Positions 43,222 through 43,379 of a stretch of DNA of 64,000 nt are shown one piece after another. Within the stretch, counting starts at the first letter, position 1. The number at the start of each line of letters is the position of its first letter. The translations under genes were made by a program, and so were the position numbers. The notes below the pieces were generated by a model, which worked only from the letters and a program-made list of their open reading frames with translations, was not told the origin of the DNA and did no database searches. Source of the DNA: an uncultured Chitinophagaceae bacterium (GTDB lineage: Bacteria; Bacteroidota; Ignavibacteria; UBA10030; UBA8401); assembly GCA_964371615.1 (NCBI GenBank), contig CAYJMS010000001.1, positions 23,048 to 87,047 on the forward strand, read 5' to 3'.

Positions 43222-43379
43222 AACGTCTGACATGGATTTTCACCTGTCCGCCGCGCTTTTTGGCGGAATGTCTGACGTTTCCTCAAAAACACTATGAGAT
43301 GTCAGACGATGAGAAACGTCGTCAGACATCCTTAGCGGTAAGAAAACGTCTGACATAGCTGCTCAATGTCTGACGTTTC
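43222..43379. promoter_or_regulatory. Array of six copies (both orientations) of an 11-14-nt motif, ATGTCWGACGTTT / AAACGTCWGACAT, with palindromic core GTCWGAC. It lies in the leader of the alpha/beta-hydrolase gene.
   Basis: The sites are 43223-43233 ACGTCTGACAT, 43268-43278 ATGTCTGACGT, 43299-43309 ATGTCAGACGA, 43316-43329 ACGTCGTCAGACAT, 43346-43356 ACGTCTGACAT and 43366-43376 ATGTCTGACGT. Confidence 0.6.

Follow-up and report, generated by a model that had tools for sequence, protein, structure and literature searches.

The cluster of GTCWGAC motifs at 43222-43378 is very likely a BIME-like group of three REP-type hairpins, with the cognate RAYT (REP-associated tyrosine transposase) encoded elsewhere in the same genome. 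This attribution is based on arrays of the same hairpin unit that directly flank RAYT genes at the loci L114, L203 and L004, and on related palindromes at L027. Judged by its sequence, the repeat is a new family within a known kind, the RAYT-associated REP/BIME clusters. In the following, the window denotes the whole stretch of DNA that was analysed (64 kb), and positions given without a locus name refer to it.

Hairpins and repeat unit in the hydrolase spacer

An exact scan located GTCWGAC at 43225, 43270, 43301, 43321, 43348 and 43368, in agreement with the first-pass annotation, which had described six copies in both orientations in front of an alpha/beta-hydrolase gene. These are six of the eight copies present in the window, the remaining two lying at 26281 and 38324. 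Since dinucleotide shuffles predicted 6.0 copies per whole window, the total is ordinary and it is the clustering that is extraordinary; a Poisson estimate for six or more copies in 150 bp was about 1e-14. A 12-mer, ATGTCWGACGTT, was found exactly at 43222 (−), 43268 (+), 43345 (−) and 43366 (+), with near-copies at 43299 (+, one mismatch) and 43318 (−, two mismatches), and with up to two mismatches it occurred in the rest of the window at chance level only. The orientations of the six cores follow the series R F F R R F.

Rather than being six separate sites, the motifs pair up as the arms of three imperfect palindromes (Table 1). In hairpin B-long the arm AACGTCTGACAT (43222-43233) pairs with ATGTCTGACGTT (43268-43279), apart from a T.T mismatch at the centre; between the arms lie 34 nt, which contain the string CCGCGCTTTTTGGCGG as well as a small hairpin, CCGCC...GGCGG. 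Folding of 43215-43290 as single-stranded DNA gave the B-long hairpin with its arms paired (z = −4.3, plus strand only). Hairpin A is composed of GATGTCAGACGATG, the loop AGAAA and CGTCGTCAGACATC, and its 14-bp stem includes one G.T pair and, at the centre, an invariant A.A mismatch. Hairpin B is composed of AAACGTCTGACAT, the loop AGCTGCTCA and ATGTCTGACGTTT, and has a 13-bp stem with a central T.T mismatch. When folded together as single-stranded DNA (43290-43388), A and B formed two adjacent hairpins on either strand (z = −5.5 and −4.9), each with one central 1x1 mismatch, and the units of L114 and L004 folded in the same way. The feet of the hairpins read TATGA/GATGTC and AAGAA/AACGTC, and the tetranucleotide GT[AG]G is absent from them, neither GTAG nor GTGG being present.

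Table 1. Positions of the repeat features and of the genes bounding the spacer
Feature	Position	Strand	Evidence
Lys-rich 41-aa small ORF, left bound of the spacer	43066..43191	+	conserved translation
REP hairpin B-long (copies 1+2)	43222..43279	+	sequence, ssDNA fold
Complete ~98-nt doublet unit (A + linker + B)	43294..43387	+	nhmmer profile, 85.0 bits
REP hairpin A (copies 3+4)	43298..43330	+	ssDNA fold, both strands
REP hairpin B (copies 5+6)	43344..43378	+	ssDNA fold
Alpha/beta hydrolase (non-heme chloroperoxidase-like)	43406..44233	+	Abhydrolase_1, E = 1.1e-32

The pairing was compared in eleven distinct copies from four loci. For hairpin A, 91.6% of the cells were paired and the central pair was unpaired in all eleven copies; for hairpin B the corresponding values were 87.4% and ten of eleven. 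One compensatory pair was found in each hairpin, namely pair 12-23 in A (AU in seven copies, UA in three) and pair 16-26 in B (UA in seven, CG in three). The observed covariation score was reached by 15 of 500 shuffles for A and 58 of 500 for B, a modest support due to the fact that most stem positions are invariant. The central mismatch is fixed in the arrayed units of L004, L114 and the window; a solitary L203 copy and one hairpin-B copy of the eleven (L015) lack it.

Hairpins located in a possible 5' UTR could also belong to a cis-regulatory RNA leader (attenuator- or riboswitch-like) or a small RNA acting in the hydrolase transcript, and the RNA fold of the plus strand is indeed strongly negative (z = −4.7). 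The minus strand, however, folds equally well (z = −5.4), which argues against a strand-specific RNA element and is expected of DNA palindromes. Moreover, a search of 40000-47000 against Rfam 15 gave no match at E values up to 1, the structure is not kept at the orthologous leader, and RAYT genes have the same units on either side whatever the gene context. An RNA function of this kind is thus extremely unlikely.

Hairpins A and B and the linker between them constitute the repeating unit of the RAYT-flanking arrays. An nhmmer profile built from the units of L114, L004 and the window scored 85.0 bits on the plus strand of the window unit versus 22 bits on the minus strand; the RAYT-flanking units of L114 scored 72-93 bits, a range that includes the window unit. 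The latter is collinear with the L004 units (alignment A1, window 43286-43392), and the distance of 98 nt from the core at 43270 to that at 43368 equals the period of the L114 and L203 arrays. B-long is homologous to L004:3698-3782, including CCGCG(C/T)TTTTTGGCGG (alignment A2), and its right half is present in the relative L196. On sequence grounds, the window array comprises one and a half of the ~98-nt hairpin doublets. The unit profile gave no second match in the 64-kb window and the 10 kb past its 3' end held no further unit copy, so that no extra copy was found in the remaining 63.8 kb of the window plus the 10 kb beyond (about 74 kb examined). The loci known to carry the element in this organism are therefore two, the hydrolase spacer and the flanks of a RAYT gene. 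REP elements are typically present in more than 100 dispersed extragenic copies per genome.

Unit arrays beside RAYT genes

One genome per GTDB species was scanned for the inverted pair ACGTCWGACAT-N5-35-ATGTCWGACGT, without reference to any gene. More than 111 loci were returned, most of them unrelated look-alikes, and two Bacteroidota loci were informative. The first, L004 from a Chitinophagaceae MAG, contains 21 cores in 1.2 kb, arranged in a tandem unit of ~94 nt with four cores, of which the order, orientation and central bases match those of window copies 3-6. Inside this array, with units on both sides, lies a 182-aa ORF (L004:2709-3257) carrying the motifs PTHFHF and YVHQNP. It reached 25.3 bits with Pfam Y1_Tnp (cut-off 23), and its top NCBIfam match was REP_Tyr_transpos, the REP-associated tyrosine transposase, with 66.8 bits, under the cut-off of 80. 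The second locus, L027 from a Saprospiraceae genome, shows eight dispersed long palindromes on GTCAGACAT...ATGTCTGAC, spaced by 120-1070 bp, with a RAYT homologue between them. Because the scan selected no gene, the twofold occurrence of a RAYT inside the arrays is strong evidence of an association.

The look-alikes from Collinsella, Telluria and Gemmatimonadetes do not share the repeat unit and were for this reason rejected as family members and not used as evidence. In Collinsella/Coriobacteriaceae (L003, L005-L011 and most others to L113) the match is ACGTCAGACAT-TCAAG-ATGTCAGACGT with three to four GTCWGAC cores nearby; a single matching locus per assembly was seen in dozens of assemblies, with the conserved flanks TTCGTTCA...CGAACCTGCG, and the unit profile gave only weak partial matches to it (E about 0.02-0.6). 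A palindromic element of ~66 nt, GGGGTCACGTCTGACATTCGTACATTTC-N8-GAAATGTACGAATGTCAGACGTGACCCC, is present on at least 11 contigs of the Telluria sp. MAG SMAG_U12405 (L018, L029, L048, L055, L056, L059-L061, L064, L066 and L104) and is a REP-like high-copy repeat of this beta-proteobacterium. Gemmatimonadota MAGs (L012, L028, L030, L033, L036, L043, L058, L080, L081, L091, L094 and L107) and L014 have hairpins with arms of tandem heptamers, (CAGACGT/CAGACAT)n facing (ACGTCTG/ATGTCTG)n, several per genome. Finally, L013:5913-6011 from an Acetatifactor MAG has an iteron-like arrangement in which a 20-bp sequence, AACGTCTGACGTGAAAAACC, is repeated five times in direct orientation and then once inverted.

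With the L004 RAYT as query, a protein search returned 418 relatives, some of them named 'REP element-mobilizing transposase RayT' in their source. One of these, P0096, has 182 aa and is 53% identical to the L004 protein. It is indexed in 45 assembly-collection blocks, the same count as for the hydrolase of the window, and shares the ENA sample series with the window (ERZ136929xx/ERZ136930xx). Its locus, L114, has a GC content of 0.499 versus 0.498 for the window, and the tetranucleotide correlation between the two (r = 0.959) equals that of window chunks among themselves. Sample series, index counts and composition thus indicate that L114 very probably comes from the same organism as the window, and it is treated as such here. 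The RAYT gene of L114 (5001-5549) is preceded by seven cores and followed by ten, in 98-nt units such as TATGAGATGTCAGACGATGAACAGCATCGTCAGACATC...GAAAACGTCTGACAT...ATGTCTGACGTTTCC. In the close relative L203, where the RAYT is at least 90% identical and the gene neighbourhood is the same, 16 cores lie upstream and 8 downstream. A tblastn search of the 64-kb window itself found no RAYT gene.

L203 also carries a solitary hairpin, GATGTCAGACGT...ACGTCTGACATC (L203:1623-1668), between unrelated genes and 8 kb from the RAYT. Its 12-bp stem is perfectly paired, without the central mismatch. This copy demonstrates dispersal of the element and shows the mismatch to be specific to the arrayed units. 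A second RAYT-like gene of 212 aa is found 6 kb from the first (L203:3040-4434; JGI 3300057060, Ga0573185_19892), with PNHVH as its HuH motif and YVIENP as its Y motif. The hairpins flanking it are a different repeated pair, GCCGACCTCCNGGTCGGC and GCGAAGCNGAGCTTCGC, which occur in the window at chance level only.

When a profile of the RAYT alignment was compared with the PDB, the sole match was E. coli TnpA_REP (4ER8; E = 9.5e-4), with an alignment covering the HuH, (W/F)QPR and YIxxNP motifs. The residues H54, H56 and Y116 are invariant in the RAYT alignment, within the motifs PTHFHF and YIHQNP. P0096 itself scored 22.7 bits with Pfam Y1_Tnp (cut-off 23) and 62.9 bits with NCBIfam REP_Tyr_transpos (cut-off 80).

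Eighty metagenomic loci encoding relatives of the P0096-type RAYT were also inspected. Only six of them carry at least two exact copies of GTCWGAC within 400 bp, and the density of the motif over the 80 loci was 0.37 per kb near the gene versus 0.03 per kb farther out. At most RAYT loci whose flanks were read, other hairpins were found, several of which have the form xTGTCAGACACCT-loop-AGGTGTCTGACAx or are variants such as TGTAGGACACCT. We take the six loci out of 80 to mean that GTCWGAC marks a sub-lineage and not the entire RAYT clade. Co-variation of RAYT and REP has been described (Quentin 2018, PMC6006769), and the flanking hairpins of the 80 loci fit this pattern.

Copies that are both tandem and dispersed could likewise be expected of another repeat class, a TIR-type MITE, integron attC sites or a CALIN, or a minisatellite unrelated to the neighbouring transposase, and the spacing of 120-1070 bp at L027 resembles that of a cassette array. 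The sole recurrent neighbour, however, is the RAYT, in four independent genomes, and no integrase or DDE transposase was noticed among the Pfam matches listed near the L004, L114 and L203 arrays. The palindromes, judged by eye on the scan output, do not fit the R''/R' consensus of attC sites; for the L027 palindromes, where there is no integrase, attC/CALIN was dropped on this same reading of the core sites. We consider a class of this kind very unlikely.

The orthologous spacer and the operator reading

The window genes around the array encode MlaE, MlaF, MlaD, the 41-aa small ORF, the alpha/beta hydrolase, a 620-aa ORF and a Por_Secre_tail (type-IX-secretion) protein. Pfam detected no DNA-binding domain in the neighbouring genes, which upheld the initial remark that no regulator gene is adjacent. 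Homologues of the hydrolase carry the source name non-heme chloroperoxidase. The host is a member of the Bacteroidota-like group, and its closest relatives bearing a name are 'Bacteroidota bacterium' MAGs. A sigma-70 promoter scan found none on the plus strand, and a terminator scan one weak terminator-like site on the minus strand.

The small ORF has no Pfam match. Its translation, MSKSQNSKSDAKKKPLLTKKEKKAAKREKKLGTPVIDLLSK, is kept almost residue for residue in L115:2204-2329 and L201:3779-3904, and this conservation, which extends to a relative with a hydrolase of no more than 80% identity, makes a genuine small protein gene probable. The ORF is called as 41 aa in L115 and L201 and as 45 aa in L001, L002, L197 and L198; these last four carry the window's own sequence, so the longer calls imply an upstream start. 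The ORF that follows the hydrolase (598/620 aa, 44470-46332, plus strand) has no Pfam domain and is missing from the syntenic L201, where a Por_Secre_tail protein comes directly after the hydrolase.

The spacer between the small ORF and the hydrolase varies strongly between relatives. In L197 and L198, from the same population (99% nucleotide identity), it is identical to that of the window and has six cores. In L115 (hydrolase 92% identical at the nucleotide level) three cores remain, corresponding to the right arm of A and hairpin B, with a 96-bp indel relative to the window. In L196 (hydrolase 89% nucleotide identity) the right half of B-long is fused to the gene-proximal flank and at least one core is present. 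Missing from L196 are exactly the 98 bp between the cores 43270 and 43368; this deletion spans exactly the interval between two copies of ATGTCTGACGTTTC, endpoints that fit recombination between direct repeats. In L201/L202 (Bacteroidota MAG GCA_054605115.1, hydrolase 80% identical in amino acids) the spacer is 96 bp long and has neither GTCWGAC nor a profile match, with the synteny of the radical-SAM gene, MlaEFD, the small ORF and the hydrolase intact. From this comparison we conclude that the array is a lineage-specific insertion changing in unit-sized steps and not a conserved leader.

These variations bear directly on the first-pass annotation, which had proposed that the motifs form a multi-site operator bound by a dimeric regulator, with a micro-repeat element as the alternative, and had called for comparative footprinting of orthologous leaders. 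Under the operator reading each AYGTC-W-GACRT near-palindrome would bind a dimeric factor (e.g. GntR-like) controlling the hydrolase. The position of the array immediately 5' of the hydrolase gene, the palindromic 7-bp core and the distance of 20 bp between paired sites, centre to centre, would suit such a function. The footprinting nevertheless revealed cores that are not conserved between relatives, with none in the syntenic L201/L202 spacer and at least one, three and six among close relatives. The repeat was also found at loci unrelated to this promoter, as identical units form gene-less tandem arrays beside transposase genes, and the central mismatch and the unit architecture are kept between genomes with no common gene context. 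In addition, the neighbouring genes include no regulator, and a second copy is missing from the 74 kb examined of this genome. The empty orthologous site largely refutes the operator array, and we regard this reading as having hardly any probability left. Candidate consensus sequences for such sites were the GntR-type GT-N-AC, the PadR-type ATGT-N8-ACAT and the -35/-10 elements of ECF factors; these leads were dropped once the arrays had been linked to RAYT genes and the orthologous site had proved empty. The micro-repeat alternative, in contrast, is supported by the RAYT-flanking arrays and the unit-wise variation of the spacer. A false lead is thereby removed, since the locus harbours neither a hidden regulon nor an orphan operator.

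The same annotation had suggested a shared regulon with a palindrome at 14238-14255, and this suggestion fails, as the unit profile gives no match there. This perfect palindrome of 18 bp, GTCTGTCGTACGACAGAC, precedes the ORF at 14301-15245 and has no second copy in the window or in any of the compared loci.

Relation to described REP families

For the REP-type cluster the following course of events may be envisaged. By analogy with E. coli TnpA_REP and the Y1 enzymes of IS200/IS605, the RAYT would recognise the hairpins in single-stranded DNA and would cut and join beside them, seeding copies at new extragenic sites. Recombination between direct repeats may then let clusters grow or shrink.

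The cluster resembles the E. coli REP/BIME and RAYT 'REPtrons' (Nunvar 2010, PMC2817692; Quentin 2018, PMC6006769; 4ER8) in several respects. In both cases short extragenic imperfect palindromes occur in regularly spaced clusters, copies flank a single-copy HUH/Y1 transposase gene, and the copy number differs between relatives. Unlike the REPtrons, the window family has no 5' GT[AG]G foot and has stems of 13-14 bp with a fixed 1x1 central mismatch; its ~98-nt doublet is made of two different hairpins and is direct, not inverted, on both sides of the RAYT. With the REPINs of Pseudomonas fluorescens (Bertels & Rainey 2011, PMC3116915) it shares a doublet of ~100 nt, two short palindromes, the association with a RAYT and the clustering. 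REPINs, however, are inverted copies of one sequence forming one long hairpin, whereas A and B differ and fold separately.

A further parallel is RAYT subclass 2.6 (Bertels group 5), which is found mostly in Bacteroidetes, is 'flanked by atypical secondary structures' without GT[AG]G, and has a mean length of 179 aa, a YIH[QN]NP motif, weaker pairing and copies elsewhere in the genome (Quentin 2018, PMC6006769). The RAYT described here agrees with it in the phylum-level host, the length of 182 aa, the motif YIHQNP, the GTAG-less and more weakly paired flanking structures, and the presence of copies at other places in the genome. It differs in its HuH motif, THFH versus NH[LIV]H, and in FQ versus WQ, and because of these deviations from the subclass 2.6 consensus we have given it no subclass. 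The strings GTCAGAC and GTCTGAC do not occur in the supplementary tables of the same study (Quentin 2018) as far as these are available as text, and the motif strings were matched in the searchable literature by unrelated primers only.

The CGTC-tagged REPs (Di Nocera et al. 2013, PMC3733652) are similar in that CGTC is present, GTAG is missing and close pairs are formed. In the window CGTC is found in both hairpins, at the outer end in B and at the inner end in A. The published CGTC families have an unpaired tag, stems of 8-9 bp starting with AT, loops of 4-5 nt and a CCA tail, and are found mainly in alpha-Proteobacteria, with no dedicated transposase reported by the authors (PMC3733652). 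In contrast, CGTC lies within the stem here and a RAYT is adjacent to the unit arrays. As stem, loop, tail, host and transposase all differ, the window repeat was rejected as a member of these families.

A further-reaching proposal would be that a distinct RAYT clade of Bacteroidota-like bacteria, characterised by THFH and FQ, reads GTCWGAC hairpins through an obligatory central 1x1 mismatch, which would replace the GTAG guide, and that the cluster has in addition been co-opted, the number of units tuning read-through from Mla and the small ORF or the stability of the hydrolase mRNA. We consider this proposal, taken as a whole, speculative and rather unlikely.

The REP family delimited here and its probable RAYT enlarge the group of 'atypical' REPs in Bacteroidota, for which descriptions are scarce. 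The hairpins are defined substrates for studying how a GTAG-less RAYT recognises DNA, and the natural allelic series at one locus (0, at least 1, 3 and 6 cores) is suited to tests of downstream expression. Finally, the RAYT gene of L027 (L027:4191-4835, minus strand; CALIZI010000137) carries an in-frame insertion of one of its own palindromes, GAAAACTTGTCAGACATTTCCAAAATGTCTGACAAGTTTTC, located between the HuH motif and the Tyr motif, and the same palindrome also flanks the gene on both sides. A palindrome inside the RAYT gene is a peculiarity reported for RAYT subclass 2.4 (Quentin 2018, PMC6006769).
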